Positions 3-28,106 of a DNA stretch of 64,000 nt are shown here, in pieces. Numbering within the stretch: position 1 is the stretch's first letter; each line of letters begins with the position of its first letter. Where the stretch lies: the NCBI GenBank assembly GCA_045611705.1, contig JAZKXR010000007.1, positions 2,241 through 66,240 of the forward strand, read 5' to 3'. The position numbers were made by a program, and so were the translations under genes. The stretch comes from Alphaproteobacteria bacterium. GTDB lineage: Bacteria > Pseudomonadota > Alphaproteobacteria > CAAHEQ01 > UBA3637. The notes beneath the pieces are model-generated. The model was not told the DNA's origin, ran no database searches, and saw only the letters and a program-made list of their open reading frames with translations.

Positions 3-1646
3 AGTTGTTGTAAAAACGAAAATGTTTATAATGATCCGAATACCAATGAAAAAAAATGTTGTGGTATAGGGCATCATCTATCGGAATATGTTGATATAAA
101 TAAGAACAGAAAAAAACAATGTTGTCCGAATGGGCAAGATGCTAGTTCTTATGGGAATTGTTGCAATACATCTGATTTAGAGTTAAACTGGCGTATAGAA
201 AAAAAATACTGTAAATATTTTTTAGATGCAGGAGATATCAATAATAACATTTGTCCCATACCTGTTCCAGATAGTAATGGTAGAAAAAGATGTCTGACTG
301 GTGCGAATAAAACTATATTTGAAGAAACTGGTGTTGTTTTGGGATGTTCAAATGAAGTCCCCGTTAATTGTCCTTCTAATCAAGTTGTTGTTGAACCACT
401 CAGTTCATCCGAATGTTTCTGTGGCTGTTATAATAATGATCATTGCTTTGATTCGAACCGTGTTGGAATTAAACAACGCTGTCAGGCAGATTATACATGT
501 GCTGTTCCAAAAAAACTCACATATAATAATATAACAGTTGTTTATGATAAATTTTCCGGCGGTGAAATAACTGAAGAAAAAATGAAAAAAATCCTAGAAG
601 CTCTTAAAGAAAAATTAGCGTTAACAGCAGAAGATAGTGTAACCATTCATTTTAAAGCATGGCAGGGAGATTCAAGAATGCTTGGTGCTGGCGGATATTG
701 CTATGGTGGTGATCATAAAAATATACATATTAATGCGGCATTGTGTGATGTGGCAAGTGATGGTAAAACCTTAACCTGTGAAGGAACAATTCTTCATGAA
801 AATATTCATCGTATTGATAGGGTAAACGAACCTTTATGGGGACACTTTGAATCTGGTTTGTCTCGAGCATATGAATCTCTTATCACTGAAACACATGCCC
901 AGGGTTTTGGTACTGTCAGCTATATAAATAATGCTCTAAAATTTTGTTATAAAAATTTAAATGGTAATGTATATAGTATAATGAGTACACAAATAAATGC
1001 AACAGAAGAAGAAAAAAATGACTGTAGGATCTTTACCAATAAGATAAATTCATATGGGAAAAGTGTTGATCATTATGTTAATCTTGGAAATGCCAAACTA
1101 TATTTTTCTAACCCAAAATATTTTGATCCAGAAAATTGTTCAGGTTTAAGGGCTATAATTGAAAAGGAATTTTTGAATTCAGGATATGCGAAGAGGGGCT
1201 ATATTGAAGATAAAATAAAAACATATGAAGAAATGGATGATGATTGGGATTATTTCCGTGACAAACTAGAAATTGCAAAAAGACTGGATAGGTTGGGCTA
1301 TAGACATTCAGGAACAAAAAAAACGTTGACTGAATTGTTGATTGATCTGTATAATAAAGGTTCAAAAGTATGTATCTCGGGGCATGATTTTGTTAACCAT
1401 CCCCAAATCAATATTGAAATATTAAAATCAAGGTTTTCTGAATTTGCAGAAATGAATGATTTTACAGTTGCTAATCAAAAATGTGTTTCGTGTTGGTCTG
1501 GCAAAGGAGCATTGGTATCTGAACAATGTTTTGAATGTCAAAAAAAATTAGAGTGTATAACGGACGAATTTAATACAAATTGTACGCCGATAGATTTCTT
1601 TAATAAATATATTGGAACAAGTGCTGTATCTCAGTTGTTTTACTAG
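3..1646 (+). CDS. Cys-rich secreted protein, 5' end truncated by the window edge; C-terminal domain carries an HExxH (HENIH) Zn-metallopeptidase-like motif
   Basis: Frame 3 is open from nt 3 with no stop before 1646. Repeated CC/CxC motifs (CCGIGHH, CCPNGQ, CCNTSD) and LHENIHRIDRVNE...E(+18) are consistent with gluzincin-type spacing. Confidence 0.55.
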   Translation, partial: SCCKNENVYNDPNTNEKKCCGIGHHLSEYVDINKNRKKQCCPNGQDASSYGNCCNTSDLELNWRIEKKYCKYFLDAGDINNNICPIPVPDSNGRKRCLTGANKTIFEETGVVLGCSNEVPVNCPSNQVVVEPLSSSECFCGCYNNDHCFDSNRVGIKQRCQADYTCAVPKKLTYNNITVVYDKFSGGEITEEKMKKILEALKEKLALTAEDSVTIHFKAWQGDSRMLGAGGYCYGGDHKNIHINAALCDVASDGKTLTCEGTILHENIHRIDRVNEPLWGHFESGLSRAYESLITETHAQGFGTVSYINNALKFCYKNLNGNVYSIMSTQINATEEEKNDCRIFTNKINSYGKSVDHYVNLGNAKLYFSNPKYFDPENCSGLRAIIEKEFLNSGYAKRGYIEDKIKTYEEMDDDWDYFRDKLEIAKRLDRLGYRHSGTKKTLTELLIDLYNKGSKVCISGHDFVNHPQINIEILKSRFSEFAEMNDFTVANQKCVSCWSGKGALVSEQCFECQKKLECITDEFNTNCTPIDFFNKYIGTSAVSQLFY

Positions 1647-1655
1647 GAGGATAAA

Positions 1656-1868
1656 ATGAAAATAACAAAAAAAACGCTTTTAAAAACGTTGTTTATTTCG
1701 GCTTTGTCGGGAATTTCTGTTTTGGGTGGATGCCAAAAAAATCACCATGATGATGTTCCGCAAAAAGGGGGGGAACGTCTTTCCGCAGAAGAATTGAGGA
1801 AGATGGCTGAAGAAATTCGAAAATGGGAATCAAGAAATGTACAATATAATACCAAACAAAGGGATTAA
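1656..1868 (+). CDS. small lipoprotein (signal peptide with lipobox LGGC)
   Basis: Strong RBS AGGAGG 7 nt upstream; N-terminus MKITKKTLLKTLFISALSGISVLGGC. Confidence 0.5.
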   Translation: MKITKKTLLKTLFISALSGISVLGGCQKNHHDDVPQKGGERLSAEELRKMAEEIRKWESRNVQYNTKQRD

Positions 1869-1870
1869 AT

Positions 1871-2845
1871 ATGAAAACATCATCACGTATTGGTTTGTTG
1901 GCATTTGTTTCATCATTGGGATTAAGTTTATCGGCGTGGGCGGCATGGCAATGTTGTTCATTGGATTCGGTGGCATTGTGTGGAGATGTGTGTTGTAAAA
2001 CTGAATGTGCCAGTGATGGTACCTGTCCCGATGATTCTTGTCCATCGGGCCAAGAAAAAGTATCCAATGGTGAATGCTGTGATTCCAATAAGGTTGCCGA
2101 ATCCGGAAGTACAAAAACCTGTTGCGGTTCAAATGAAACAGTTGTTGGTGATCAATGCTGTGCTTCCGATAAAGTGGCCGGCTCTGATTCTTCCCAAACC
2201 TGTTGCGGTGAGGACGAAACAGTGGTTGATGATCAATGCTGTGCCTCCGATAAGGTTGCAGGCTCTGGCGATTCCCAAACCTGCTGTGGTGAGGACGAAA
2301 CAGTGGTTGATGGCAAATGTCAAAAAGAAGATAATGAAGATGAGGACGAAGAAGATAATGTTTGTCCCGATGGGGGAACATTGGTTAAAGGAAATTGTTG
2401 TAGAGATGGTTTTCTTTATGATGATGAGAGCTATGGTTATGTTATACAAAGCTATAGTTCTTGTGGTGTTTGCCCAGAGGGTTCGTCACTTCTTTTTGAC
2501 AGGTTCTGTTGCAAAGGACTGAAAGCTTGGAATGGAACAGAATGGAAAGAAGACACTAATGTTTGGGCGAATTGTTTCTGTGCGGGAAGAGAAGGATCAG
2601 TTGTTTATGATAGCAAATCAGGGGTATGTATGCAATGTTTATCCAATAAACCCTCGTGTACTTTTTCGGGGACTGTTCTTTCTGCCAGTAGTAATTGCAG
2701 TGCAGATGCACCTGCTGGTCTTTTGGAGGAATGTTGTAATCAGGTAGGGGGAATCATGTGTCATGGTAAGTGTTTGACGGAAGGCCGTCATGTGTGCTGT
2801 GATAAAGAACCTTATGTTAGATCGGCATCATTAGGATGTGATTAA
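1871..2845 (+). CDS. Cys-rich secreted repeat protein (Sec signal peptide, CC-motif tandem repeats)
   Basis: Signal peptide ...SLSAWA followed by three 27-aa tandem repeats DQCCASDKVAGSxxSQTCCGEDETVVD. Shares the CC-pair style of the upstream ORF. Confidence 0.6.
   Translation: MKTSSRIGLLAFVSSLGLSLSAWAAWQCCSLDSVALCGDVCCKTECASDGTCPDDSCPSGQEKVSNGECCDSNKVAESGSTKTCCGSNETVVGDQCCASDKVAGSDSSQTCCGEDETVVDDQCCASDKVAGSGDSQTCCGEDETVVDGKCQKEDNEDEDEEDNVCPDGGTLVKGNCCRDGFLYDDESYGYVIQSYSSCGVCPEGSSLLFDRFCCKGLKAWNGTEWKEDTNVWANCFCAGREGSVVYDSKSGVCMQCLSNKPSCTFSGTVLSASSNCSADAPAGLLEECCNQVGGIMCHGKCLTEGRHVCCDKEPYVRSASLGCD
2069..2311 (+). repeat. three tandem 81-nt coding repeats inside the Cys-rich gene
   Basis: Near-identical 81-nt units begin at about 2069, 2150 and 2231. 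Confidence 0.6.
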
Positions 2846-2865: not shown

Positions 2866-2899
2866 ATGCCCCTTGAATAAAAGGGGCGTTTTTATTTTT
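2866..2899 (+). terminator. rho-independent terminator after the Cys-rich operon
   Basis: GCCCCTT-loop-AAGGGGC hairpin followed by a T-run. Confidence 0.6.
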
Positions 2900-3139
2900 C
2901 CACGAATTTGATGGTCTTTTTTTATTAAATTGTCTTGGCGGGATATGTGTTTTTTGGGCGTGCGGATGACGAAAATGCGATATAATATAGCTATAACAAA
3001 CGGAAAAAGAAAAGATTTTTATACGTCTTGGTATATTGAATTAAATGGGAATGCCTTGCCCGCTCCATACAGGAGTATGAGAGATGTACTTGATGCAGCT
3101 AAAGAATAAAAAAAAGCCCTGTAAATCAAGGCATAAAAA

Positions 3140-3215
3140 TGGTGCCGACACTCGGATTCGAACCAAGGACCTACTGATTACAAATCAGTTGCTCTACCAG
3201 CTGAGCTATGTCGGC
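3140..3215 (-). tRNA. tRNA-Thr (anticodon UGU)
   Basis: Reverse complement folds as a cloverleaf: acceptor GCCGACA/TGTCGGC, D arm GCTC-AGCTGGTA-GAGC, anticodon loop TTTGTAA, T-loop TTCGAAT, encoded CCA. Confidence 0.85.
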
Positions 3216-5548: not shown

Positions 5549-6496
5549 ATGACGACACAATTCAACCCTTTAAGTGAAACAACCGATAAAAATGTCCGAA
5601 AAATATTGAGCAATTGGTGCGAATATTTATCCGTTCAACGCAATTTATCGGACAAAACCGTTTCATCCTATATGGAAGATATGAAAGGGTTTTGTGATTT
5701 TTTATTTACATCTTTTTCGCAAGCGGTTGATGAAAAATTATTACGGGATTTAACCATAACGGATTTTCGTTCTTTTTTGGCTTGGCGTCATCAAAATCAG
5801 GCGGATCGTACAACGGTGGCCCGTGGTGTATCGGCGTTGAAAAACTTTTTTAAATATTTGATGCGTCAAAACATATTAAAAAATACAGCCATTATGTCGG
5901 TCAGGTCTGCCCGACCGCATCATCATTTGCCACATCCGATAACTTCCAATCAGGCTGAGGATTTTTTGAAAACGGCTTTTGAATTACATAAATATCCATG
6001 GTCAGGCTGGCGTGATAAAGCATTGTTTACGTTGATGTACGGTTGCGGTTTGCGTATTGCCGAGGCACTTTCTTTAAATGTGAAGGACGTTGTTCCGATG
6101 CCTGAGGTTTTGTGTATTCGGGGAAAAGGGAATAAGGAACGATTGGTACCCGTTTTACCAAGGGTTCAAAAAACATTACAGACGTATTTGGATCATCATC
6201 CTTATCCACGACCGGATTATCCGCTGTTTGTGGGGTTTCACGGTGACAGAATCAATCCCGGTGTGGTGCAAAGAACCGTGCGTAAAATTCGTGAAAAGTT
6301 ATCTTTGCCCGAAACGACTACACCGCATGCCCTGCGTCACAGCTTTGCCACACATTTATTAGAAAACGGTGGGGATTTAAAAAGCATTCAGGAATTGTTG
6401 GGGCATAAAACTTTATCGGCCACCCAAAGATACACGCAAATTACCACACGGGATATGCAACGGGTTTATCAAAAATCCCATCCACGAGCTGGTTAA
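5549..6496 (+). CDS. tyrosine site-specific recombinase, XerC/XerD family
   Basis: C-terminal catalytic motifs ALRHSFATHLLENGGDLKSIQELLGHKTLSATQRYTQI. Confidence 0.8.
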   Translation: MTTQFNPLSETTDKNVRKILSNWCEYLSVQRNLSDKTVSSYMEDMKGFCDFLFTSFSQAVDEKLLRDLTITDFRSFLAWRHQNQADRTTVARGVSALKNFFKYLMRQNILKNTAIMSVRSARPHHHLPHPITSNQAEDFLKTAFELHKYPWSGWRDKALFTLMYGCGLRIAEALSLNVKDVVPMPEVLCIRGKGNKERLVPVLPRVQKTLQTYLDHHPYPRPDYPLFVGFHGDRINPGVVQRTVRKIREKLSLPETTTPHALRHSFATHLLENGGDLKSIQELLGHKTLSATQRYTQITTRDMQRVYQKSHPRAG

Positions 6497-6891
6497 TCAA
6501 ACATATCTTCGTATTCTTTTGTTTGATTGGGGTCGTTAAAGCCTTCATAAAAATCATCCAATAATAAACTTTGTGTTTTTTTCACTTTGAATTGGCAATT
6601 ATTGCCTGACCATTCCCAATCTATGACACGATCATTTTGAACAAAGACACGCAAATTGCAGTTTTTGACGATTTTGTCCACACGACCAGCCACAATATCT
6701 TGGTTATCAAAAGTATAAACTATAACGTCATAGGCAAATCTTTCGGCTTTTGTCGGAACCCCAAAGTTATCCTGTAATTCGGCCACTGTTTGACCGTAAA
6801 AGATTTGGGAACGTGAAATTTCGGGCTGAATTATAAAAGATCTGGCACAACCCGTCAGGATTAATAAAACGCATACAGCCCATTTTTTCAT
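6493..6891 (-). CDS. lipoprotein, function unknown
   Basis: Lipobox LTGC after an N-terminal hydrophobic segment. Confidence 0.45.
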   Translation of the reverse strand: MKKWAVCVLLILTGCARSFIIQPEISRSQIFYGQTVAELQDNFGVPTKAERFAYDVIVYTFDNQDIVAGRVDKIVKNCNLRVFVQNDRVIDWEWSGNNCQFKVKKTQSLLLDDFYEGFNDPNQTKEYEDMFD

Positions 6892-9563
6892 TCCATATTT
6901 TCCATTCTAAATAATTGATTCTGTTCTTTTTGAATTTCGGTTGGTACAGGCAAATTCTGACTTTCCAAAAACAACGGATTTTTCAATTGGATCAGATTTG
7001 GGCCATATGATTTTTTAATGTTGTTTGGTAATAACCATCCGTCCAACGTAACATCCAATTCATTATTGGTATTTAAAATCAATTGTCCTGAACGTACTGT
7101 ATAAGCTGTTGAATTTGCATCAAACAGGTTTTGAATAGCCTCTTCATCGGATTGTTTTTGCCAGGTTGTGTTGGAAAGTTTTAATGTCAAGTTGCCAAAA
7201 TCAAAGCCATTATTTGAAACAAATACAGGAATATTTAACGAAGACCGACCACCGTTAACGGATATGCCAGGCAATTGCAAATAATCATTTAATTCTTCGG
7301 CATCAAACATTCCCGCTGTTTTTAATGATAAAAGCTCATTTGGATTTTTCAACGGAATCAAAGTGCTGGACATCATAACGTCTTGGCCGGCAATTTGTGC
7401 ATTCAGATTGGCCAATCGTATGGATTGATTATTGATTTGGAATTGTACGTCTAAATTAGAAATCGGCACCAATGTTTGAATTTTTTGAATAAATAAGTTT
7501 TGATTATTGATTGTTATCAAAGGCAATAATGATTTTAGCTTTAATACACTGTTAATGCCGGATACGTTGATATTGTTAAAATCAAATGCAACATCTTTTA
7601 ACGCAATATACATTGGTCCCATTATGTTAACATCAGACATATTCAATTGTCCATATGCCATAAATTGTCCGTCAACATTTGAAAGATTGGATGAAAAAAT
7701 TTCAGATAATTGAGATAATTCAAATGGTATTTCGCTTAAATCAAATGCTGGAATAATGAATTTTCCCGAAAAATAAGATTTTAAAGGATTAAAGAGACCA
7801 TACGCCTTAAATGTAATGGGTGTATCCAAAACGGAACCGGTTATGGATGTTTGTTCACCTATGTTTAAAATATCTAATTTAACAGGTTTTGATAACAAAG
7901 GTGATGATGTTTGAAGCCGATTGGCAGTCAATTGAATTTTGGCTGTTGGATTAAAATAATTTTCAACCAAAAGATCCATTTTATTTATTGTCAAGCCTGA
8001 TGTTTGATAATCTCCCTTTTTTATATCCAATCTTAAAAAGTTATCACTTCTGTCTTGGCCCAAAAAGATAAGCAAATCTAAAACATCGGCATTAAAGGAT
8101 AATTTTTCCTGATTACTTCCGATAAAGCCATTCAATTTAGGTGACTTAATCGGTAATTCAAGTTGCATATATGGATTTTTAAATTGTAAAGAGATATTTT
8201 TTTTCTTAGTCGGTTGTAATTCAAACGAAGTTGATTTTGAAAAGGTCAGGTGTTGATTTTTTATATCAAAAGAAAATGAATTAACATTTATGGTGCTTTC
8301 TTTTTGTATAGCATAATCACATTTTTTCTGTTTTAAAGAACAAGTAAATTTACCGTTCAGACTTGATTGTAAACCGTCAATGCGAACGCTTTGATTGTCA
8401 AAATGTTTCAATTTTAATTGCAATGGTGAATTTGAAATCAATTCGCCATCAGAAGTCAATTCCAATTCTTTAAAATTCAAAGATAAATCAGTTGTCGGTG
8501 TTGCATTTTTGGAATTTGATTCGGTAAAAATAAAACTTCCGTTAAATTTGTTTTGACCTTTGTTTTTCAGATCAATTTGAATTTTCTTTGTTGAGTTAGA
8601 CCGATTTAAATCAGCATCCATTAAAATACTTTTCAGGGTGTCTTGCTGCATCTGTATAACGATACTGCCTTCTAATTTTTCGGTTAACCGTTGTGGCAAA
8701 GTTATTTCACCGGCATTTGTTGTTTTTATTTCAATTTTTCGTTCTTGATGATTGCCTGTTATTTGTAACAGACCATCCAAAGTTAAAAAATCTTCATTGA
8801 TTGAAAAGGGGATAACAACCTGATTTTCATGCATATATGTGCCAGACAGAGAAAACGCAACGGATACATTTTGTTCTTTTCCTTGAATATTCAGAGCGGC
8901 ATTATTGACATGAACAATATTGATGTTTAAATCGTCTTCTTCTTTGTTGGGTGAACTTAATTTTTGTAACAATCCAAAAACCATTTTTGTTCCGACCAAA
9001 TCATTATTTGTTTTATTATTCAAATTAATTCTTAATCCATTGATTTCCAACATACGGATTCTGTTTTGCAACAGATCGGTAAAAGTTGAATGAATAATAA
9101 CGGATGGAATGTTATAATTACCATCAATGTCTTTCAGATTTGTAATATTGATTTGCGAAAATGAATAATCGGGCATTTCCAAAGAATCATATTGAATGTT
9201 GTTTTTTTCCATATACTCTTTCAAATGGCTTGGCAATTGTGCAAAAGAGAACACACACAAACACAGTGTAATAATACCAGACAGATACAAAACACTGATT
9301 ACACCGGCCCAAATTGAATGTAAAAAGATGAACAATCTTTCATTACTTCTGCGGAAAGCATCAATATGAAAGGTGATTTTCATCAATATGGCCATCAACG
9401 ATATGATGTGGGATTGCTTTTTTGGGGAAACGGTTACAATTTCTTCATCTTCGGCTGTAATTTGAGCATACAATTCGCCCTGATTTGCATTCATGCGTGG
9501 CCCGTCTATTGATGGTCTAGGTGTGTTTTGATTAAAATCAGCCATATTATTCCCCTTTTTCAA
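6888..9563 (-). CDS. large N/S-rich membrane-anchored protein (possibly AsmA-like)
   Basis: 891-aa ORF with an N-terminal TM segment and a long beta-rich body; no catalytic motif recognised. Confidence 0.35.
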   Translation of the reverse strand: MKKGNNMADFNQNTPRPSIDGPRMNANQGELYAQITAEDEEIVTVSPKKQSHIISLMAILMKITFHIDAFRRSNERLFIFLHSIWAGVISVLYLSGIITLCLCVFSFAQLPSHLKEYMEKNNIQYDSLEMPDYSFSQINITNLKDIDGNYNIPSVIIHSTFTDLLQNRIRMLEINGLRINLNNKTNNDLVGTKMVFGLLQKLSSPNKEEDDLNINIVHVNNAALNIQGKEQNVSVAFSLSGTYMHENQVVIPFSINEDFLTLDGLLQITGNHQERKIEIKTTNAGEITLPQRLTEKLEGSIVIQMQQDTLKSILMDADLNRSNSTKKIQIDLKNKGQNKFNGSFIFTESNSKNATPTTDLSLNFKELELTSDGELISNSPLQLKLKHFDNQSVRIDGLQSSLNGKFTCSLKQKKCDYAIQKESTINVNSFSFDIKNQHLTFSKSTSFELQPTKKKNISLQFKNPYMQLELPIKSPKLNGFIGSNQEKLSFNADVLDLLIFLGQDRSDNFLRLDIKKGDYQTSGLTINKMDLLVENYFNPTAKIQLTANRLQTSSPLLSKPVKLDILNIGEQTSITGSVLDTPITFKAYGLFNPLKSYFSGKFIIPAFDLSEIPFELSQLSEIFSSNLSNVDGQFMAYGQLNMSDVNIMGPMYIALKDVAFDFNNINVSGINSVLKLKSLLPLITINNQNLFIQKIQTLVPISNLDVQFQINNQSIRLANLNAQIAGQDVMMSSTLIPLKNPNELLSLKTAGMFDAEELNDYLQLPGISVNGGRSSLNIPVFVSNNGFDFGNLTLKLSNTTWQKQSDEEAIQNLFDANSTAYTVRSGQLILNTNNELDVTLDGWLLPNNIKKSYGPNLIQLKNPLFLESQNLPVPTEIQKEQNQLFRMENME

Positions 9564-12428: not shown

Positions 12429-12773
12429 TTATTGCACAAATCCTGCGTCAATTCCAGGTTCACCTTTGCCTTGTGTTGCAAATTTAATCACGTAGTCGGC
12501 ACAGGCGACAATAGCCACACCGAACACCAAAGCCCACAACCATTTCCATTGGATTTTGCCCAACAAAGCGGCGGCGGCCATACCGATTAAACCAAAAGCA
12601 GCCAAAACATAGAAGACTGTTCTGACACTATTAAAAACGCCACCCAATGTACTGGCGACACCGTCTAATCCAACAGTGGCACCGCCACCACCGCCTTGTG
12701 CCCAAGCATGGCCGGCAAAGGCTACGATACCAAAGATGGCCACGATGGCCAAAGTTTTAAATAATTTTTTCAT
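12429..12773 (-). CDS. virB2: VirB2/TrbC-family T4SS pilin
   Basis: Sec signal ending AWA-Q, Gly-rich mature N-terminus, two hydrophobic helices, about 114 aa. Confidence 0.6.
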   Translation of the reverse strand: MKKLFKTLAIVAIFGIVAFAGHAWAQGGGGGATVGLDGVASTLGGVFNSVRTVFYVLAAFGLIGMAAAALLGKIQWKWLWALVFGVAIVACADYVIKFATQGKGEPGIDAGFVQ

Positions 12774-13071
12774 TTTTTATATTCCTTTCTTTTTTTATTG
12801 ATGCATCAATTCAATTCAAATTCAAAAATTTTTTGACGAATACGATACGCCGGCCAATTTTTTATTTTGATTTTCATGACTCCTTATAAGGATTGATTTT
12901 TGGTTCGGAACCATTCCAAACCATAACTACATCATAAACAAAATTTTGCCTTTGTCCAGTATTTTTTGTAAAAAAATGCAAAAAAAACAAAAATTTTATA
13001 ATTGTTAATAAATTATTAACTTTTTAATGCTTATGATTAAATCAGGTTTTAACATTCGCATCGGGGGATGC

Positions 13072-13833
13072 ATGAAAAAGTTTTTAATCGGCTGGGCTGT
13101 ATTTGGATGGGCTTTGGGTGCTGTTGCCCAAACATCTGATGTTTTGGTTATGCCGAATGCTGATGATTTTTTGGGACCCACTTATGCTATGCCGGATGCC
13201 CCTGTTTTTGTGGAAACACCCAAAATGCCCCCACAAAAAGATATTTTAAGCGAGATTTTTGGTGATAATGCATTGAAATTAAATGCTAACCAACCTGTTC
13301 AACCAATTGCGTCAAAGACAATTACGCCGACCCCCGGGCTGTATTCCCCCAAGCAAAGTATTTTGACGAAGTTGCCGGATTTACCGATGCCTCAGGTAAC
13401 GTTTGAAACGGCTGTGGATACAAAAATCACACCGATTATAAAACAACCCGAATATGCCAATAATTTATTGGCCGAATTACAAGGTGGTAAAAAAACATTT
13501 TTTTCGGCCCCTCGTGAAATTCGTCTTTCTTTTTATCCGGGGCAATCGGCTTTATCGGCCCAGGCATTGAAATGGATTAAAATTTTTGCATTGAAAGTGC
13601 GTGATGATCCGCGTTTGGTGGTGGAAATTCGTGCGTCTGATGAAAATTGGCCGTTGCAAAGCAAACGCGTGGCCTTAATGTTACAGGCTGTGACGGAACA
13701 AGGGGTTTCACGTCATCAAATCTATGTTTATAAAAGTCCGCGTGCGGGCGATAGTGTTTTAATTGGTTATGCAAAGGCAATTGATAAAGAGGTAAAAAAA
13801 GATAAAAAAAGACAAAAAACAATTAATTGGTAA
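13072..13833 (+). CDS. secreted protein with OmpA/MotB-like C-terminal domain
   Basis: Cleavable signal peptide, Pro-rich middle, C-terminus with an OmpA-like pattern (LVVEIRASDE...RVALMLQAVTEQGV). First gene of the pilus-like cluster. Confidence 0.4.
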   Translation: MKKFLIGWAVFGWALGAVAQTSDVLVMPNADDFLGPTYAMPDAPVFVETPKMPPQKDILSEIFGDNALKLNANQPVQPIASKTITPTPGLYSPKQSILTKLPDLPMPQVTFETAVDTKITPIIKQPEYANNLLAELQGGKKTFFSAPREIRLSFYPGQSALSAQALKWIKIFALKVRDDPRLVVEIRASDENWPLQSKRVALMLQAVTEQGVSRHQIYVYKSPRAGDSVLIGYAKAIDKEVKKDKKRQKTINW

Positions 13834-13893
13834 AAAAATGCTTGTATTATAAAAAAAAACAGTGTATGTTTTTTGAAAAACAGGGAGATTGAT

Positions 13894-14589
13894 ATGGTAA
13901 AAAAAATGAAATTATTAAATGCTCTGGTTGTCGGTGGTGTTGTTTTGACCGCTGTTAGTGGTTATGCTCAATCTGGTCAGTTTATTGATTGTTCAAATGG
14001 TGGCAAGGGATGCGATATGCTGTATGCTGCAGATGATGTTTTTTTGGCACCCGATTGCGTGGATTGTGTGTCCGGTGAAATTCAGGTGGAACCGGCTGTA
14101 ACCAAAACATCCTATCAACCTTTGTCTTATTCAATGCCGGCCGATACCCGCGTGGAAGTGTTGCCCAGTGGGGCTGTTCGTACGACAACAACTCAGGTTT
14201 CTGGTGTGCGAAATGGGGTAACGGATGTGCAAACAACACGCAAAGTGGAACGATTGGAAGAACAAACTTTGTCCGGCAAATGGGTTACTCATGATACAAA
14301 TGAAAAAATAGCATTTGGTGAAGGTGTTCACGATTGGGATGCGGCGCGCGGTGAAACATTGAAATCTTTGTTGACTCAATGGTCCGAAGTATCTGGTTGG
14401 ACTTTGGTTTGGAAAATGGATCGTGATTATAATTTGGAAGCCGGCGTTGTTTTCCGTGGTACATATACCGAAGTGGCCAGTGCGATAATTCGTACTTTTG
14501 CCCGTGCGAAACCGGCTCCTATCGGGACTTTTTATCGTGGTAATCGTGTTTTGGTTGTCAGTATACAGGAGGACGAGAATGCTCATTAA
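13894..14589 (+). CDS. TcpQ-like pilus-biogenesis protein (secretin-associated)
   Basis: Signal peptide; C-terminal block GWTLVWKMDRDYNLEAGVVFRGTYTEVASAIIRTF...FYRGNRVLVV resembles the TcpQ/PilL domain. Position immediately 5' of the secretin matches tcpQ-tcpC. Confidence 0.45.
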   Translation: MVKKMKLLNALVVGGVVLTAVSGYAQSGQFIDCSNGGKGCDMLYAADDVFLAPDCVDCVSGEIQVEPAVTKTSYQPLSYSMPADTRVEVLPSGAVRTTTTQVSGVRNGVTDVQTTRKVERLEEQTLSGKWVTHDTNEKIAFGEGVHDWDAARGETLKSLLTQWSEVSGWTLVWKMDRDYNLEAGVVFRGTYTEVASAIIRTFARAKPAPIGTFYRGNRVLVVSIQEDENAH

Positions 14590-16234
14590 AAAATTATCCA
14601 TTGCTTTGTTGGCGGGTTGTGTTGCCTTATCCGGATGTAATCAGCATGTGGTTGAGGCAAATAAGCGTATTGAGGAAACTTTGTCCCGTGTGGAAGAATA
14701 CAAAGAGGCGGCCCAAATTCCGGATTTGCCCGAAGTAACCGATACCGTTCGTATGCAAAACGATATTTACTTGGGTAACCAAAGCGTCAAAATTATGGAA
14801 GGCGATTCTTTACCCAGTTGGTTGGAAAAAGATGACGGTATCACAATGGCTGTATCCGAAGATGCGACTTTGCCAAATATCTTGCAGGAAGTTTCCGATA
14901 TCACGGGTATGAATATCCGTTTGGATGATTTGCGTCAAGAAAATGCAATTCCTGAAAATGCTGTGCCGTTGAAATATTCCGGTTCTTTAAGCGGTTTGTT
15001 GAATTATTTGGCCAATCGTTTTAATGTGTATTGGCGTTATAAGGATGGTGCGATACATTTTTATACAAAAGAAACGCGTGTCTTTACAATTTATGCTTTG
15101 CCGACCGAAACATCTTTGCAGGCCAGCATTACAGGTGCAACCATGGGTGAAAGCGGTGGCGGTAATGCAACGTCCAGCTTGTCGGTCAATTCCGATTTGA
15201 AAATTTGGGAAAGTATTGAAGAAGGCGTCAAACAAGTTGTTGGCGAAAATGGTCAGTTATCATTTTCCCGTGTGGCAGGTACGGTAACCGTGACGGCCAG
15301 TCCTTTTATCGTGCGTAAGGTTGCGGCATATGTGGCCAATTGGAACGAAAAATTGTCCCGTCAGGTGGCCATTACGGTTCGTATTATTCAGGTTACCTTG
15401 AATGATAAAAATAACTATGGTTTGGATTTGGACGCAGCATTTAAAAACAGTGTATTGTCGCCGTTGAAATTTGCAACAACGGTTGTGGAAGAGGGGGCTT
15501 CGGCCATTACCGGCAACTTGTCAATGACATTATTGAAACCCGGCAGATTGAGCGGTTCCAAGGCAATTATTAATGCTTTATCCAGCCAGGGAAAAACAAG
15601 ATTGTTGAATACATCTTCTGTTACAACATTGAATAACAAGTTGGCACCGGTGCAAATTTCAACATCCAAAAACTATTTAAAGGAAATTACCGTTACAACA
15701 TCGGGCAGCGGTGATGATAAATCAACTGATACCGATTATGAAGTGGATACTTTAAACTACGGTTTTACAATGGAGGTTTTGCCCCGTATTTTGGATCATG
15801 GTCGCTTAATCGTTTTGTTTAATTTATCCATTACCGATTTCTTGGGCTTTGAATATGCCGGTTCTGCCGATAAAAAATCAGAATCAGAATCTTCCAGTTC
15901 CTCAGGTGAGGGAACAACGGGGGATTCAAGCAGTGATTCAAGCAGTGATTCAGAAAGCGATTCGGAATCCGAAGTTACCAAATTGCAATTGCCGACAATG
16001 CAGATGCGTGGTTTTGTGCAAGAAATTGCCATGCGTTCAGGTCAAACATTGGTCTTAACTGGATTTGAAGAATTAAGAGAAACAACTTCTTCATCCGGTA
16101 TTGGAAAGGCCAAAATGGGATTATTGGGTGGAAAAGCCTATAATGATATGGAACGCAAGGTTTTGGTGATTACAATGACACCTGAGGTTTTAAGATCTCC
16201 CTTGTCACAAGAAGCCTTAATGCGGGATTATTAA
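14579..16234 (+). CDS. outer-membrane lipoprotein secretin (PilN/TcpC type)
   Basis: AGGAGG RBS, lipobox LSGC, C-terminal secretin domain (TTLNNKLAPVQIS...KVLVITMTPEVL), internal S/D/E-rich low-complexity insert. Confidence 0.8.
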   Translation: MLIKKLSIALLAGCVALSGCNQHVVEANKRIEETLSRVEEYKEAAQIPDLPEVTDTVRMQNDIYLGNQSVKIMEGDSLPSWLEKDDGITMAVSEDATLPNILQEVSDITGMNIRLDDLRQENAIPENAVPLKYSGSLSGLLNYLANRFNVYWRYKDGAIHFYTKETRVFTIYALPTETSLQASITGATMGESGGGNATSSLSVNSDLKIWESIEEGVKQVVGENGQLSFSRVAGTVTVTASPFIVRKVAAYVANWNEKLSRQVAITVRIIQVTLNDKNNYGLDLDAAFKNSVLSPLKFATTVVEEGASAITGNLSMTLLKPGRLSGSKAIINALSSQGKTRLLNTSSVTTLNNKLAPVQISTSKNYLKEITVTTSGSGDDKSTDTDYEVDTLNYGFTMEVLPRILDHGRLIVLFNLSITDFLGFEYAGSADKKSESESSSSSGEGTTGDSSSDSSSDSESDSESEVTKLQLPTMQMRGFVQEIAMRSGQTLVLTGFEELRETTSSSGIGKAKMGLLGGKAYNDMERKVLVITMTPEVLRSPLSQEALMRDY

Positions 16235-16244
16235 AGGAGTCCGT

Positions 16245-17603
16245 ATGGAAAAAGAAGAACAACCGGCGAATTTAATTGATCAATTGGAAACAACACGGGA
16301 TGAGGTTGTCAAACGTTCCTCAACCGGTGTTGTGACCGTTGATGGTCAAAAATATGCGGTTGGTTTGGTATGGCAACCGGTTCAAAATCTGGACGACCCG
16401 ATTGTTGAAATTCGTGAATCTGCCGACAGTGAAACAGGTGCTGATTTATACTGTTTACGTCCGGCGGCAACCCCGCAATACGGTATGGGGTACAGCGAAT
16501 TGGGGCATCGTGATGGTATGCCTTCGTTGGCGGCCGCTGTGGCATCTGTTTTAACCGAATACAGTTCTGTTTGTGCCGTTTTCCGTGTGGATGAAGGATG
16601 GTGGTTGATTGCCATTCGTAATGATTTGATTTTGGCCGAAGAAGATATTGTCTTTGCCACAGAGGTTGAAGCTCAACGTGCCTATGCCGCTATGATGGCG
16701 GTGCCGGATTGGGGGATTCGTATTGTCCCACCGGAATGGAACATAGAAGGTGTTCAACAGGAAGATTTAACAAAACTTGTTCATGGTACACGTAAGGTCC
16801 GTTTGCAATCCATCAATGCCCAAAGACGAACAAAGTTTTTATTGGCTATTGCTCTTTTCATTGTTTTGGGCTTGGCATATTTAATATGGATGTTGGTTCA
16901 GGTTTTAAGCGAGGTGTTTACAGAAGACCAGGATATCATCCGTCCGCCGCCAACGGGTACACAATTGGGGGTTCAGGCCCCACCGCCAACCGCCACGCAT
17001 AAGCCATGGGAAGTTTTGCCGGATATGAAGCAATTCTTTGACCGTTGCTGGAATGCCGCTTATCAGGTTCGGTCGGTTATTGTGCCGGGATGGACAATGG
17101 GTATTATTCAATGTACAAAAGGTGAAGTTTTAACATCATGGCAATTGGAAAATCCGAAATTGGGACGTTTGTCATGGATGCGTTATGGTGTCAATGAATA
17201 TCAATTGAGTCCGAATTTTAAAATTGAAATTAAATCTGACGGAACATCGGCCACCGGCATGGTGACCTTTGATACGAAACTGTCCACGGTTTCATCTGAA
17301 CCAAAAATGACACCGATAGAATTGGAAGAAGATATTCGTGAAATTCAACAGGCAACGGGTTTAAGTTTTCAATTTAATCGCCAAACACTGTTGGATCCGC
17401 CCAATCGGGCCGATGGAACACGTCCACCCAATCAAAAAACATACACATACTATTCTTTTGTGGTTTTATCACCATATGCACCAATGGAATGGTTGTCGTT
17501 TTTTGAAAAGTTTTCTGGTTTGGAAATAACAAAACTGGAATATACGCCGTCTGGCGATGCAACAAACAAATGGAAGTATGAGGGAAGAATCTATGCAAAA
17601 TAA
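16245..17603 (+). CDS. bitopic inner-membrane pilus assembly protein (PilO/TcpR-D-like)
   Basis: Single central TM (LLAIALFIVLGLAYLIWMLV); operon position between the secretin and the PilP-like gene. Confidence 0.35.
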   Translation: MEKEEQPANLIDQLETTRDEVVKRSSTGVVTVDGQKYAVGLVWQPVQNLDDPIVEIRESADSETGADLYCLRPAATPQYGMGYSELGHRDGMPSLAAAVASVLTEYSSVCAVFRVDEGWWLIAIRNDLILAEEDIVFATEVEAQRAYAAMMAVPDWGIRIVPPEWNIEGVQQEDLTKLVHGTRKVRLQSINAQRRTKFLLAIALFIVLGLAYLIWMLVQVLSEVFTEDQDIIRPPPTGTQLGVQAPPPTATHKPWEVLPDMKQFFDRCWNAAYQVRSVIVPGWTMGIIQCTKGEVLTSWQLENPKLGRLSWMRYGVNEYQLSPNFKIEIKSDGTSATGMVTFDTKLSTVSSEPKMTPIELEEDIREIQQATGLSFQFNRQTLLDPPNRADGTRPPNQKTYTYYSFVVLSPYAPMEWLSFFEKFSGLEITKLEYTPSGDATNKWKYEGRIYAK

Positions 17604-18507
17604 AACATTTTTAAAAACATTGTTCGTGATTTCTTTTTTAACTGTACCGGCTTGGGTAATGACGGTTGATGCATCTGTTCCATCGCAACCAGATGCTTCA
17701 AGATCATTAGGATTATCGGATATTGATTTAAGCAATAAAAAAACTGTTGATTTTTCTGCTCGTACATCAATGGATGAATTGGAATTAACAACCTTGCCCG
17801 GTGTCAATGAAACAAATATTACAGGGCCGGCGGCTTTTTCGGAATCTGTTGGCAGCAATGATTATCCCAGTGAACAATTATTGGGTCGTTTGAATCCGGA
17901 TGTTTTTGAAGAAATGGCTGCATTAGAAAGGGATAAAGCCTTTTTAACTTTGCAAGTTCAAAAGGCAGAATTGTCTAATAAATTGGAAGATTTACGTGCG
18001 ACATATCGTCAAAATCGGTTGGATGAAATCGCCAGACGTGAAGATGTGATTCGGACGCGTATTCAATGGTGGCAGGAACAGGAAAAATTGCGTTTAGAGG
18101 CCGAAAATCAACGTCAGGAAGCCGAAGAATTAAAAGCTCAGCGTCAAGAAGCCGAAGCCTTGAAAGAACAATTGGCCGAAGCACAACGTGCTGTTTTGGA
18201 AGCACAGGCACAGGCAGAAGCACAAGCTCGGGCACAACAACAGCAAGCTCAATTAGTGCCAGAGGCAGTGGTTATTGATGAAACAACAGATGCCGATTTG
18301 GAACCCATTGTTTCGCATCCGTCATATGTTTTGGTGGGTGTAAAGGGAACTCGCGGTAATTTACAGGCTCGTGTTAAAAACACATCTTCCGGAGAAATAT
18401 CAAACGTTCGTACGGGTGAAAATTTGTTTGGTGAGGTTGTAACGGCGGTTACACCAGACAGTGTTATTTTATTGCGTGATAATTCCGAATATGTGATTAC
18501 ATTTTAG
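17593..18507 (+). CDS. PilP-like pilus assembly protein (N-terminal anchor, coiled coil, C-terminal beta domain)
   Basis: N-terminal hydrophobic segment, long QA-rich coiled coil, C-terminal VLVGVKGTRGNLQARV...VILLRD resembling the PilP secretin-binding domain. Confidence 0.4.
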   Translation: MQNKTFLKTLFVISFLTVPAWVMTVDASVPSQPDASRSLGLSDIDLSNKKTVDFSARTSMDELELTTLPGVNETNITGPAAFSESVGSNDYPSEQLLGRLNPDVFEEMAALERDKAFLTLQVQKAELSNKLEDLRATYRQNRLDEIARREDVIRTRIQWWQEQEKLRLEAENQRQEAEELKAQRQEAEALKEQLAEAQRAVLEAQAQAEAQARAQQQQAQLVPEAVVIDETTDADLEPIVSHPSYVLVGVKGTRGNLQARVKNTSSGEISNVRTGENLFGEVVTAVTPDSVILLRDNSEYVITF

Positions 18508-18512
18508 TTTGA

Positions 18513-20480
18513 TTGGATTTTGAAATGGTGGAAGAAAATCAACAAATCGTTTCTGAAACTGTGTCAGCGGGTGGGGTTGAAAAATCCGGTGAGGTTTTTT
18601 CATCACCGATATTACCAACCCAGAGTATGCCTGTGGATGAAAACCAGGCGTCACCACAAATTCAATCGGATGAAACCCAATCATTTTCGGCGGCGGATGT
18701 TTTGGCCCCACAGCAAGATTTATCCGAAACTTTGGATACCTTAAAGGAATATTCCGAACAACCTCAAACACCTCAGCCGGCACAGGTGGTACCCGAAGAA
18801 ATTACTGCCCAAACAAAATTGACAGTAGAAGAAGATCCACATGCCGAAGAAGATGATAAAAAAGAACTTTATTCATATGATATTGATCCAAATGATCACA
18901 GTTCCGTTCGTTTTTTAAAGGATTTATATGATAATTCAAACGAATGTATGACATCTGAAACAGGTTCTTTTCCCGTAAATGAAGAAACACGTAAGTTGTT
19001 GGCTTTGTTTTCAAACGGTCGTTTTTTTGTGGTGGAAGAAAGCAAATATGACGGTCGTGTTTTGGGATTTGAATATTTGGCCAAAAAAAGACGTTTACAG
19101 ATATCTGATCCCGAATATGTGACGCCTTCGGAATTGTTGGCTATTTATACCTATGCCGATCAAATTCGTACAGCAACGGATACGATCAGTGCCGAAGAAG
19201 TTCAGCGTCAAACACGTATGCAACGGGACTTTGTAACAGTGATTTCCCGTGCCGCCATTAACCATGTATCTGATATTCACATTGTTGTGGCCGATCACAC
19301 AACGGTTTTATTTCGTGTAAACGGTTTAATGCAAACAGAAATGGAATATAACAAGGATTGGGGTGAAAGCTTTGTTCGTGCGGCCTTTGCCTCGGCGGAT
19401 GTTTCGGATTCCAACTATGCTCAAAATGAATATCAGGCGGCTCAAAAATTGGGGCGTACGCCTTTGCGTGGTTCGGGTGGACGATTGGTGTTGCCTAAAT
19501 CTGTTTTGGGTTTGCGTTTGCAATTTAACCCGATTGCCTTTGGTACCCGCTATGTGATTATCCGTTTATTGTATGCGGATGAAAATGCGGCCTCAGGCGA
19601 TCAAGCATTGGAAAGTTTGGGCTTTTCGGATTATGATATTGAAAAATTCAGATATTTGCGTTCATTGCCAACGGGAATTGTGGTCGTATCTGGACCGACT
19701 GGTTCGGGTAAATCCACAACATTGCAACGTAATATGATTTCTATGTTAAAGGAACGCAACTATGAAACCAACCTGATTACGGTGGAAGACCCGCCCGAAT
19801 ATCCGATTCCCGGTGCTCGTCAGATGCCGGTGACCAACGCGGGTGTTGAAGAAGCCAAAGACCGTGAATTTACAAAGGCTTTGTCGGCGGCTTTGCGTTC
19901 TGACCCTGATTCATTAATGATCGGTGAAATTCGTACGCTTGCGGCGGCCGATTTGGCCTTCCGTGGTGCTTTGTCAGGCCACAACGTATGGACAACTTTG
20001 CACGCCAATACGGCTTCGGCGGTTTTGTTGCGTTTAAAGGATATTGGTGTGGAAGATTTTAAATTACAGGATCCATCCATTATGCGTGGTATGTTGGCCC
20101 AACGTTTGTTCCGAAAAGTTTGTCCGTTTTGCCGAGTGGCAACCAAAACACAGTTAAATCATCCGGCCGTTCAACGTTTGCGTGAAGCCTATGGTGATAT
20201 CGGTTTGGAAAATACTTATTTGCGTGGGGCCGGTTGTGAAGAATGTGATTTTCGTGGCGTCAGTGGACGTTCGGCTGTGGCAGAATTTATTTTACCCGAT
20301 ACAACCTTTTTGGATTTGATGTTAAAGGGGGAAACGCAAAAAGCATTGAATTATTGGGTGACGGATTTACATGGTCGTACCTTGAAAGAAGGGGCCACAG
20401 AGCATATGTTTAAAGGTGAGTTTGATATTGAAGAAGTGGAACGTTGGTGCGGACAACTCAATCAACCGAACCTGATTTAA
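18513..20480 (+). CDS. GspE/PilB/TcpT-family secretion ATPase with a unique acidic N-terminal extension of about 230 aa
   Basis: Walker A GPTGSGKST, Asp box, His box, C-terminal tetracysteine (CPFC...CEEC). Confidence 0.85.
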   Translation: MDFEMVEENQQIVSETVSAGGVEKSGEVFSSPILPTQSMPVDENQASPQIQSDETQSFSAADVLAPQQDLSETLDTLKEYSEQPQTPQPAQVVPEEITAQTKLTVEEDPHAEEDDKKELYSYDIDPNDHSSVRFLKDLYDNSNECMTSETGSFPVNEETRKLLALFSNGRFFVVEESKYDGRVLGFEYLAKKRRLQISDPEYVTPSELLAIYTYADQIRTATDTISAEEVQRQTRMQRDFVTVISRAAINHVSDIHIVVADHTTVLFRVNGLMQTEMEYNKDWGESFVRAAFASADVSDSNYAQNEYQAAQKLGRTPLRGSGGRLVLPKSVLGLRLQFNPIAFGTRYVIIRLLYADENAASGDQALESLGFSDYDIEKFRYLRSLPTGIVVVSGPTGSGKSTTLQRNMISMLKERNYETNLITVEDPPEYPIPGARQMPVTNAGVEEAKDREFTKALSAALRSDPDSLMIGEIRTLAAADLAFRGALSGHNVWTTLHANTASAVLLRLKDIGVEDFKLQDPSIMRGMLAQRLFRKVCPFCRVATKTQLNHPAVQRLREAYGDIGLENTYLRGAGCEECDFRGVSGRSAVAEFILPDTTFLDLMLKGETQKALNYWVTDLHGRTLKEGATEHMFKGEFDIEEVERWCGQLNQPNLI

Positions 20481-20492
20481 GGATGGTGAAGC

Positions 20493-21799: not shown

Positions 21800-22081
21800 C
21801 TATTTTAAAATAAGGTTTAACAAAGCCATAATCAGGGCAGTGCCTGTTGTGGCCACGATAATGGTAATTAAATTTTTAATTGGCGTAATTTCATTTTTCA
21901 AAACAAACTCTTGTTTTAAATTGGCATACAGTGTGTCAACCTGTTGTTTTATTTCACCAAGTTGTTGTTGCAACAATGAAACAGACGCCATTAATTTGCC
22001 GATTTCTATGGATAAGCTGGGGGCGGGCATATCAGACTCCTTAAACATCTTTATAAAATAAATGATTGCCGATTTGGGCAC
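21800..22081 (-). CDS. small coiled-coil protein with C-terminal TM (holin/spanin-like candidate)
   Basis: C-terminal hydrophobic ITIIVATTGTALIMALLNLIL; immediately downstream of the lysin. Confidence 0.3.
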   Translation of the reverse strand: MPKSAIIYFIKMFKESDMPAPSLSIEIGKLMASVSLLQQQLGEIKQQVDTLYANLKQEFVLKNEITPIKNLITIIVATTGTALIMALLNLILK

Positions 22082-22445
22082 ATGGGATTAAATGTCTGGC
22101 CCACAGGGGATGACATTCAAAAGCATGATAATGTGTGGCCCCGTTTGTGTTATCCGTCAATACACCGGCCAAAGCTCTTTTAACAATTCTTTGGCAAATT
22201 TGATAAACGGGATTTTCGGATAAATCGCTTGTTAAAATTTTGTAATTGACATCATTGTGATTCCAACATGAAAATTGTTTGGGCTTTAAACATACTTCGC
22301 GGATGTTTTTGCCCCACCACATCGGATGGATCAGATTCATTTTGACACGATTTAAAATAACATTGGCAATGGCTTCTTGACCGGCCAAGGATTCGCCACG
22401 GGCTTCACCGTAAATTGTTTTGGCAAAGATTTCTTCTTCTGTCAT
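22041..22445 (-). CDS. SleB/CwlJ-family cell-wall hydrolase (phage lysin)
   Basis: TIYGEARGES...ANVILNR motif of the Hydrolase_2 family. Confidence 0.75.
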   Translation of the reverse strand: MTEEEIFAKTIYGEARGESLAGQEAIANVILNRVKMNLIHPMWWGKNIREVCLKPKQFSCWNHNDVNYKILTSDLSENPVYQICQRIVKRALAGVLTDNTNGATHYHAFECHPLWARHLIPCAQIGNHLFYKDV

Positions 22446-22457
22446 TTATTATTCTCC

Positions 22458-24576: not shown

Positions 24577-24577
24577 A

Positions 24578-27072: not shown

Positions 27073-27138
27073 GTTCCTTTTGTATGAAAAAATCCCCCTT
27101 GGGATAAAACCAAAGGGGGACAAATGGTAAAGATTTTT

Positions 27139-27996: not shown

Positions 27997-28106
27997 ATAG
28001 TTTTAAGTTAAAAAATCCTTATCAAAGGTTGTGAAGAAAATCTTCGCCTTCATTCGGGCTGGTTAAGGTGCGGGGCACTGGGCTTATCCGCGAAACAAAA
28101 AAAGCT

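Follow-up and report, generated by a model that had tools for sequence, protein, structure and literature searches.

The first genes of the 64,000-nucleotide stretch of contig JAZKXR010000007.1 analysed here (the window) form the 3′ end of a multi-gene operon of exported, Cys-rich proteins from an uncultured gut alphaproteobacterium. Three open reading frames lie at positions 3–2845: ORF1, whose product ends in a domain with an HExxH motif; ORF2, a small lipoprotein gene; and ORF3, which encodes a protein built of repeats with paired cysteines (CC). We read this operon as a polymorphic locus for a secreted protease and its cognate lipoprotein, not as an island of eukaryote-like effectors. In the form that we favour, and to which we give about an even chance, the zincin-like ORF1 protein, its partner lipoprotein and the CC-repeat protein ORF3 would make up a protease/adhesin assembly, extracellular or associated with the envelope, that is under strong diversifying selection. 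Three traits, each unusual for bacteria, are combined here: proteins whose 7–14% Cys lie in tandem modules containing CC, an HExxH domain of no recognised class, and the clean replacement of an enzyme-plus-lipoprotein cassette between near-identical strains.

The three ORFs are tightly packed on the plus strand. Frame 3 is open from nucleotide (nt) 3 for 547 codons, with no relevant in-frame start, to a TAG stop at 1644–1646 (ORF1, 3–1646). The AGGAGG ribosome-binding site (RBS) of ORF2 (1645–1650) overlaps this stop and lies 5 nt 5′ of the ORF2 ATG at 1656. ORF2 (1656–1868) encodes a 70-amino-acid (aa) lipoprotein precursor, as judged from its translation, its lipobox and its orthologues. ORF3 (1871–2845, ATG at 1871) begins two bases after the end of ORF2 at 1868 and encodes a 324-aa exported CC-repeat protein with 41 Cys and 12 CC dipeptides. 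An intrinsic-terminator-like 13-bp hairpin followed by a T-run (2862–2893) closes the operon, and a similar hairpin follows the ORF3 orthologue of a sister genome. Packing, signal peptides and Cys counts thus bear out the original prediction: the operon encodes exported CC-motif proteins, and a lipoprotein gene separates the two large ones. The prediction counted two large ORFs; ORF3 is indeed complete, but ORF1 is cut by the window edge, which leaves the C-terminal 547 of 962 aa. Antisense and alternative-frame ORFs overlapping 1693–2522 were set aside as by-products of the repeat region.

The full-length form of ORF1 was found through the exhaustive profile search described below, in which the last 547 residues of one match, the 962-aa exported protein P0005, are identical to the ORF1 translation. 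P0005 and ORF3 (P0002) lie on the same 368,395-bp NCBI contig. The part of ORF1 upstream of the window includes the start codon. It encodes a signal peptide (MKKTLCLTVLILASVSAYA/DE) and a conserved module of Cys residues, and it also contributes tandem repeats of 44 aa, eight in number, with the pattern CGCPKDKDDNQGT..T.DGQTACCFNN.AW, a CGCP...CC type. The window itself opens with the last CC-motif modules of this stalk (3–413; SCCKNEN..., KKCCG, KKQCCPNG, GNCCNT), which are kept in P0001 and P0003. A small module with the spacing C-x2-G-C-x5-C-x11-C-x5-C (414–500), defined in an 11-sequence alignment, directly precedes the catalytic domain. That C-terminal domain of ~380 aa (510–1646) has, according to the profile search and an AlphaFold2 (AF2) model, a zincin-like core followed by a helical region; at its C-terminal end come a Cys cluster and an amphipathic tail that is conserved.

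To place this domain, an exhaustive HMMER profile search was run with it against 1.84 billion cluster representatives. It returned 13 relatives (clusters), all from metagenomes or metagenome-assembled genomes (MAGs); at 13 clusters among that many representatives, these are not widespread core proteins. One ORF1 homologue, MBE6446196.1, comes from a gut alphaproteobacterial MAG. The 13 proteins span 550–1280 aa as catalogued. On one scaffold (L090, 138–7386), a run of N splits what is probably a single ~2400-aa CC-repeat protein with a signal peptide and a terminal HExxH domain; because this gap divides the gene, the 1280-aa entry P0014 is only the C-terminal half. Overall, the family members run from 550 to about 2400 aa and consist mostly of repeat stalk of highly variable length, while conservation across all members is confined to the C-terminal domain. 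Among 5.8 billion proteins, a word-seeded search yielded one relative of ORF1 and none of ORF3, nor any with an alignment of the ORF3 N terminus. No match was obtained in a genome-contig collection scanned with ORF1, in a viral-contig collection, or in a metagenome-contig collection scanned with two alignments, the last of which evidently does not include the Joint Genome Institute (JGI) samples that carry the exact seed peptides. Pfam, NCBIfam, PADLOC and PHROGs gave no significant match for any of the three ORFs, a sequence-profile search of the PDB with the HExxH domain gave none, and the domain matched no curated peptidase family model in Pfam or NCBIfam above cut-off. Likewise, literature searches on Cys-rich proteins of gut Alphaproteobacteria/RF32 and on bacterial galaxin or dicysteine repeats turned up nothing on bacterial proteins of this kind. 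The HExxH family is thus extremely rare and without annotation, and the locus combines elements of known kinds, namely a zincin-like secreted enzyme and a polymorphic cassette locus.

Conservation of the motif was judged in the 11-sequence alignment, which has 428 columns and whose members share 23–54% identity with the window protein. Seventeen of the 428 columns are invariant. They comprise five Cys and one Gly of the pre-domain module (C19, G22, C23, C29, C41, C47); H146, E147, N148, H150 and R151 of the motif (HENxHR); E177 and A180 beyond it; and one Gly, one Ile and two Cys flanking the motif. In the window the motif reads HENIHR (795–812, with HENIH at 795–809), a putative zinc-binding and catalytic site on a predicted helix (residues 145–155). 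HENxH(R) is present in 11 of 11 aligned members, down to 23% identity, and by this alignment no other feature of the family is better conserved. The outcome that the prediction named as refuting it, homologues in which HENIH is not kept, thus did not arise. The HExxH...E signature proposed from the window sequence alone therefore stands as to its core and not as to its Glu: the VNE Glu is Gln in most homologues, and an invariant Glu is found instead in ITETHAQ (888–890; E177), 26 residues past H150 on a predicted helix spanning residues 162–196. Alignment and model together make E177 the candidate third zinc ligand.

The AF2 model built from this shallow alignment reached a predicted local distance difference test score (pLDDT) of 66.6 and a predicted template-modelling score (pTM) of 0.57, compared with a useless pLDDT of 34 from a 2-sequence alignment. 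Its elements follow the order strand 52–61, helix 72–85, strands 98–100, 121–131 and 138–142, helix 145–155 with HExxH, and helix 162–196 with the Glu. The sequence of strand, helix, strands, HExxH helix and Glu helix is the order of zincins, as described for gluzincins. Among subthreshold Pfam matches to the 156-aa core, three of the four best are zincins (Aspzincin_M35, 0.0069; Peptidase_M91, 0.033; SprT-like, 0.039), each for a single member, and hhalign aligned the motif to the HExxH helix of PepN, whose gene also lies in the window (E = 0.057). Foldseek comparison of the model with PDB and BFVD gave no meaningful match.

Gluzincins (MEROPS clan MA(E)), such as thermolysin of family M4 and aminopeptidase N of family M1, resemble the ORF1 domain in having an HExxH helix preceded by a β-sheet, a Glu on the next helix, and secretion, which for ORF1 is predicted. 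The spacing from HExxH to Glu is 18–25 residues in families M1, M2, M3 and M4; we count the 26 residues of ORF1 as within the known gluzincin range. In contrast to gluzincins, to which it has no significant sequence or Foldseek similarity, the ORF1 domain has an additional invariant Asn and Arg (HENxHR), a preceding five-Cys/Gly module, a following helical region of ~200 aa and a terminal Cys cluster. The best-supported inference from alignment and model is a new gluzincin-like metallopeptidase family, which is less than established membership. The combination of parts also recalls the ADAM/reprolysin proteins, which unite a zinc protease domain and disulfide-rich adhesive modules in one secreted protein; this is an analogy only, since ORF1 has the reverse domain order and none of the metzincin features (HExxHxxGxxH, Met-turn), and no homology was seen.

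The same proteins might instead be non-enzymatic surface adhesins or coat proteins with antigenically variable stalks, in which HExxH would bind a structural metal or be an inactive relic. The repeat stalk, highly variable in length, does make up most of each protein, repeat copy number varies, and no peptidase family is matched. On the other hand, the invariance of the H, E and H of the motif and of the downstream E across 23–54% identity is hard to explain without catalysis, a purely structural site would not need the general-base Glu, and it is the C-terminal domain, not the stalk, that is conserved family-wide. We therefore regard this alternative as quite improbable. At the very C terminus of the family members (1620–1643 in the window), we also observed a conserved tail of alternating aromatic and polar residues, formed by the last 6–8 (...QLFY, ...FFFTF, ...ETYTID, ...TFTSN); it could be a sorting or β-strand-pairing signal, and it is of low confidence in the AF2 model.

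ORF2 has the lipobox VLGG/C at the end of its signal (MKITKKTLLKTLFISALSGISVLGG/C), and its mature part of ~45 aa ends in KQRD. We take this signal to fit the PROSITE PS51257-type lipoprotein pattern, and lipidation is predicted accordingly. LGGC is invariant in four lipoprotein orthologues, and orthologues lie 3′ of the HExxH gene in loci L001–L005, L007 and L091. The catalytic domains of four operons can be sorted into two types, one formed by the window and L002 (54% identical) and the other by L091 and the two copies of L007 (48–56%), with 28–37% identity between the types; the lipoproteins sort into the same two types. This co-variation is our main reason for regarding ORF2 as a specific partner of the domain, and by sequence ORF2 is the probable cognate partner of ORF1. 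The lipoproteins of the window, L002, L091 and L007 all end in KQRD or KERN. In the window the KQRD codons (1856–1868; AAACAAAGGGAT) hold the likely RBS of ORF3, and this overlap raises the possibility that they are conserved for translational coupling and not for a role of the protein. In L007 (7967–13081) and L008, two HExxH-family genes stand in tandem with lipoprotein genes or remnants between them. The gene call of the second copy (P0011) opens with the signal peptide of a lipoprotein, joined in frame to another that is ORF3-like; this points to a lipoprotein gene, decayed or mis-called, between the two copies.

How the locus varies was determined by comparison with L002, a 74-kb JGI contig from a sister genome whose PriA is 96% identical at the aa level. 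Starting from PriA, DUF167 and tRNA-Thr, L002 carries opposite-strand genes for M15, Alr and an acetyltransferase, same-strand genes for M20 and a second acetyltransferase, two small genes (one pilin-like), an OmpA-like β-barrel gene and a gene for a 330-aa Cys-rich protein (g330). These are followed by the 771-aa ORF1 homologue, a 71-aa lipoprotein and the 585-aa ORF3 homologue; directly after this CC-protein operon lies a phage T7-like tail-fibre N-terminal gene (L002 14826–15821). The order g330, HExxH gene, lipoprotein gene and ORF3-like gene recurs in L001–L005 and L091. A by-eye assignment of g330 as C-type-lectin-like was dropped, having neither Pfam nor PDB support.

Gene by gene, divergence between the window and L002 is strikingly uneven. 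PriA (96% aa identity, 90.7% at the DNA level) has a nonsynonymous divergence (dN) of 0.021 and a synonymous divergence (dS) of 0.46. ORF1 is only 53% identical (dN 0.39, dS 1.0) and ORF2 65% identical (dN 0.22, dS 2.0), whereas the first 54 codons of ORF3 are again 94% identical at the aa level (dN 0.024, dS 0.48); past these codons ORF3 has no similarity to its L002 orthologue, and on the protein level the likeness is put at the first 74 aa only. Pairwise DNA alignment defined a conserved junction (1855–2050) that contains the 3′ end of ORF2 and the RBS, signal peptide and first Cys module of ORF3. By our reading of the alignment it has about 93% DNA identity to L002, compared with about 70% in ORF1/ORF2, and its dS of 0.48 is as for PriA. 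From this gene-by-gene comparison, the locus is a mosaic in which anchors at genome-typical divergence flank segments that are far more diverged or have been replaced. With a dN about 18-fold that of the neighbouring priA, the operon is the fastest-evolving feature in the stretch examined.

A replacement is directly visible between L091 and L002. Their flanks are 92–98% identical in DNA overall; the outer-membrane protein (OMP) gene is 100%, g330 84% and residues 1–117 of the HExxH protein 91% identical, and the ORF3 homologue is about 95–98% identical in DNA. Between these conserved parts, a stretch of 2.1 kb that begins at codon ~118 of the HExxH gene and reaches the last few codons of the lipoprotein gene has no DNA similarity. 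The replaced cassette corresponds to stalk, catalytic domain and lipoprotein: the HExxH proteins share about 30% identity past residue 117, the catalytic domains ~37%, and the mature lipoproteins are unrelated. The right-hand breakpoint of this swap coincides with the 1855–2050 junction, which appears, from these alignments, to act as a recombination anchor.

These genetics are also what would be expected of a bacteriocin-like polymorphic toxin/immunity system, which we consider the main rival. The zincin-like domain would then be an antibacterial toxin acting, for example, on the envelope or peptidoglycan of competitors, the lipoprotein a periplasm-facing immunity protein, and the swaps the trace of an arms race. 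The concept of such loci was reportedly set out by Zhang, Aravind and colleagues in 2012. With loci of the CDI (contact-dependent inhibition), Rhs or MafB type, the present one shares a conserved N terminus, a replaceable C-terminal domain with a co-varying small gene directly downstream, sharp breakpoints and tandem copies, as in L007/L008 with their lipoprotein genes or remnants; dN and dS of ORF1 and ORF2 are raised relative to the flanks. Unlike such loci, it uses plain Sec export: a Sec signal was the only export feature, and no delivery module of the type V, VI or VII secretion systems, Rhs or CDI was found. Its partner is a 45-aa lipoprotein, and neither gene matches a catalogued toxin or immunity family (Pfam, PADLOC, PHROG). 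The variable domains are moreover all homologous (28–56% identity), unlike the unrelated folds of typical polymorphic toxins, and a ~380-aa domain is large, and a stalk with more than 60 Cys atypical, for such toxins. On balance, we think a toxin/immunity function unlikely.

A further parallel in gene arrangement, by analogy only, is provided by the serralysin-type AprA–AprI/Inh pair, in which a metalloprotease gene is followed by one for a small exported protein that checks the enzyme inside the producer's envelope. ORF1–ORF2 differs from this pair in that there is no homology, ORF2 is predicted to be lipidated and has only ~45 mature residues, and the pair varies from strain to strain.

ORF3 starts with a Sec-type signal peptide (MKTSSRIGLLAFVSSLGLSLSAWA/AW), read from the sequence as ...SLSAWA/AW. 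Cys accounts for 13.7% of mature ORF3, 7.4% of full mature ORF1 and 5.8% of its visible part, compared with 1.05% in ten other window proteins. CC pairs occur at about twice the frequency of shuffled sequences in both proteins, with 12 observed versus 5.5 expected in ORF3 (P = 0.003) and 12 versus 5.2 in full-length ORF1 (P = 0.004); the excess is not significant in the visible part of ORF1 alone (P = 0.10, shuffled sequences). Three tandem units of 81 nt (27 aa; ...QCCASDKVAGS..QTCCGEDETVVD) lie at 2068–2310. Described at first as exact, they have in fact diverged, with identities of 72% (units 1 and 2), 70% (1 and 3) and 88% (2 and 3), and Tandem Repeats Finder reported 2.4 copies at 85%. 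Copy number does vary: in L002-type ORF3 orthologues, one 59-aa unit is missing in 2 of 5 assemblies, where assembly collapse is not fully excludable.

The two large genes had also been called paralogous. Compared directly, ORF1 and ORF3 show no significant similarity (E about 0.03). The N-terminal half of ORF3, including the 27-aa repeats, nevertheless aligns to the stalks of two HExxH-family proteins, P0007 (E = 1e-15, 39% identity over 124 aa) and P0011 (E = 5e-11), and P0011 begins with an ORF3-like signal peptide and first module. Because of these alignments, we conclude that ORF1 and ORF3 draw on one pool of CC-repeat modules, which preserves the sense of the claim at the level of modules and not of whole genes.

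Such Cys contents could also point to metal-binding or redox-buffering proteins, sequestering Zn, Cu or Fe in the manner of metallothioneins in an anaerobic gut bacterium. This would suit the very high Cys content with its CC pairs and a reducing habitat, presumed from the gut origin, that disfavours disulfides. Against it, Cys spacing is conserved in a module-specific way and the Cys count of mature ORF1 is even (70), both of which fit disulfide-bonded modules, and the cassette polymorphism, the HExxH domain and the lipoprotein would all be left unexplained; we rate it as highly improbable.

The CC units gave rise to yet another interpretation, that of the original prediction: Cys-knot-like toxins or adhesins of eukaryotic type, encoded on a tRNA-Thr-linked island and aimed as effectors at a eukaryotic host. 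Galaxin-like di-cysteine repeat proteins (PF24748) and other eukaryotic Cys-repeat surface proteins do resemble ORF3 in their tandem CC units of ~27–44 aa. The Galaxin_repeat match in ORF3 (E = 8e-4, 19.7 bits) is, however, below the Pfam cut-off of 28 and was not found in P0005, P0007, P0009, P0011, P0012, P0014 or the L002 ORF3 orthologue, and a match to a nematode CC domain in ORF3 is also below threshold and likewise missing from the other family members tested. The likeness is thus compositional, and the present source is bacterial. No eukaryotic homologue was found in the exhaustive HMMER search for the ORF1 domain or the word-seeded searches for ORF1 and ORF3, nor was any characterised homologue, and no effector signal for type III or type IV secretion was identified. 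The animal guts from which the source organisms come, and the GC content of ORF1 (32%, with a window mean of 39.5%), would suit host-directed foreign genes. A core-like gene for a YdbH-like 891-aa protein (6888–9563, minus strand) is, however, also only 32% GC, so low GC alone is no mark of foreign DNA in this genome.

The tRNA gene itself is as predicted. tRNA-Thr(UGU) (3140–3215, minus strand) lies 294 nt beyond ORF3, with its 3′ end facing the operon and its own terminator hairpin at 3116–3132 (minus strand); past it lie DUF167/YggU, PriA and then an XerC/D-type recombinase. The PriA-DUF167-tRNA block, 90.7% identical between the window and L002, ends at 3109, 31 nt past the tRNA and right after its terminator. 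In L002 the tRNA likewise adjoins DUF167-PriA, and the operon is 7.6 kb from the same tRNA (within 12 kb); in both genomes the tRNA 3′ end faces the variable side. Other features of a classic island were not seen in the stretches searched. There is no integrase between the tRNA and the window start or in the 12 kb of L002, and the only tyrosine recombinase (5549–6496; XerC/D-like with a SAM_1 N-terminal domain) lies beyond PriA on the conserved side. A second copy of the tRNA 3′ end, allowing up to 3 mismatches in 25 nt, is present neither in the window nor in 22 kb of L002. The proximity of the tRNA is thus confirmed, with a synteny break beside it, and a classic island is not supported, particularly as the operon lies near the same tRNA in the sister genome; altogether we hold host effectors on an island to be very unlikely.

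Because synteny breaks 31 nt past the tRNA, we regard this flank as a rearrangement point within a plastic region, in whose neighbourhood there are a prophage-like T7 module, type IVb pilus genes and T4SS genes. The operon has opposite orientations relative to the tRNA in the window and L002, which from sequence is compatible with inversion of a segment of roughly 12 kb; no convincing long inverted repeats were seen at the ends of the putatively inverted L002 segment. Between the operon and tRNA terminators, 215 nt (2894–3108) have no counterpart in L002, and this stretch includes a small ORF (2975–3109, 44 aa from its ATG) without a Pfam match.

Starting from what the sequences show, namely the gene structure, the rarity of the family, the invariant motif, the shared modules, the replaced cassette and the accelerated divergence, we propose a plausible working model for the polymorphic protease–lipoprotein locus. 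All three products would be exported, by the Sec and lipoprotein pathways, and the CC modules would fold in the periplasm as disulfide-bonded units. The ORF1 domain would bind zinc through H146, H150 and E177 and hydrolyse a peptide substrate, with E147 acting as general base. ORF2 would bind its cognate domain, either inhibiting it, acting in an immunity-like role or tethering it to the membrane, and ORF3, together with g330 and the OMP in the sister loci, would complete a surface or secreted assembly. Diversity would arise by repeat expansion and contraction and by homologous recombination at two conserved anchors, the ORF1 N-terminal module and the ORF2/ORF3 junction with the 5′ end of ORF3. 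Recombination would exchange either the whole unit of stalk, catalytic domain and lipoprotein or the ORF3 body on its own, and diversifying pressure from competitors, phage or host may select for cassette exchange.

Several observations weigh against this model. Confidence in the AF2 structure is moderate, with a pLDDT of about 55 for the HExxH helix itself; HExxH motifs also occur in non-peptidase zinc proteins; and neither the sequence-profile search of the PDB nor Foldseek against PDB and BFVD gave a match. The pairing of lipoprotein and domain is based on four operons of two types, and with a mature part of 45 aa the lipoprotein could simply be the product of an unrelated co-transcribed gene. 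The operon of the window genome was read as its 3′ end only, its 5′ half being outside the retrieved sequence. Finally, the gut lumen is strongly reducing, so that extracellular disulfides may not hold and the Cys could bind metal instead.

Should the domain prove to be a protease, with the cognate lipoprotein as its inhibitor or immunity protein, the locus would stand for a zincin family not described before and for a Sec-dependent means of strain-specific antagonism or of interaction with the host. In its most far-reaching form, which we put forward tentatively and think rather doubtful, this would be a polymorphic system of Gram-negative gut bacteria, of a kind not recognised so far, in which a Sec-exported metalloprotease on a disulfide-rich stalk is gated by a strain-specific lipoprotein and exchanged with it as a unit at conserved anchors, serving kin discrimination, interbacterial antagonism or host-surface interaction; the domain would then be the founding member of its own zincin family, and the CC repeats would constitute a family of bacterial disulfide modules likewise new. 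Even if the domain is not a protease, the operon would remain useful for typing strains and as a case in nature of cassette exchange mediated by anchors. By itself the locus opens no long-standing question; its clade of gut Alphaproteobacteria is uncultured and has hardly been studied.

The remainder of the window gives some further information on the organism. Its LeuS is 95–96% identical to that of MAGs labelled ‘Alphaproteobacteria bacterium’ and 68–87% identical to that of MAGs from goat abomasum, buffalo rectum and human (Hadza, HGUT) gut. Beyond this clade (68–96%), the next-best genome matches of LeuS (52644–55067, minus strand) are all Clostridia/Bacillota, at 54–63%, which hints at horizontal acquisition of leuS; the search was seeded by exact peptide words and is hence biased. 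A T7-like podovirus module (22041–30515, minus strand) encodes a cell-wall hydrolase, a large terminase (NF033889, 2e-116), a nozzle protein, capsid and portal, and is a prophage or prophage remnant. A TrbC/VirB2 pilin gene lies beside a type IVb (R64/Tcp-like) pilus cluster with TcpQ, secretin, PilO, GspE/PilB-type ATPase and T2SSF genes, and a VirB4 ATPase gene is found further on (12429–21614 and 36232–38667). Together, these genes suggest an integrated conjugative element, and the type IVb pilus cluster could be a putative outer-membrane route for the Cys-rich proteins.

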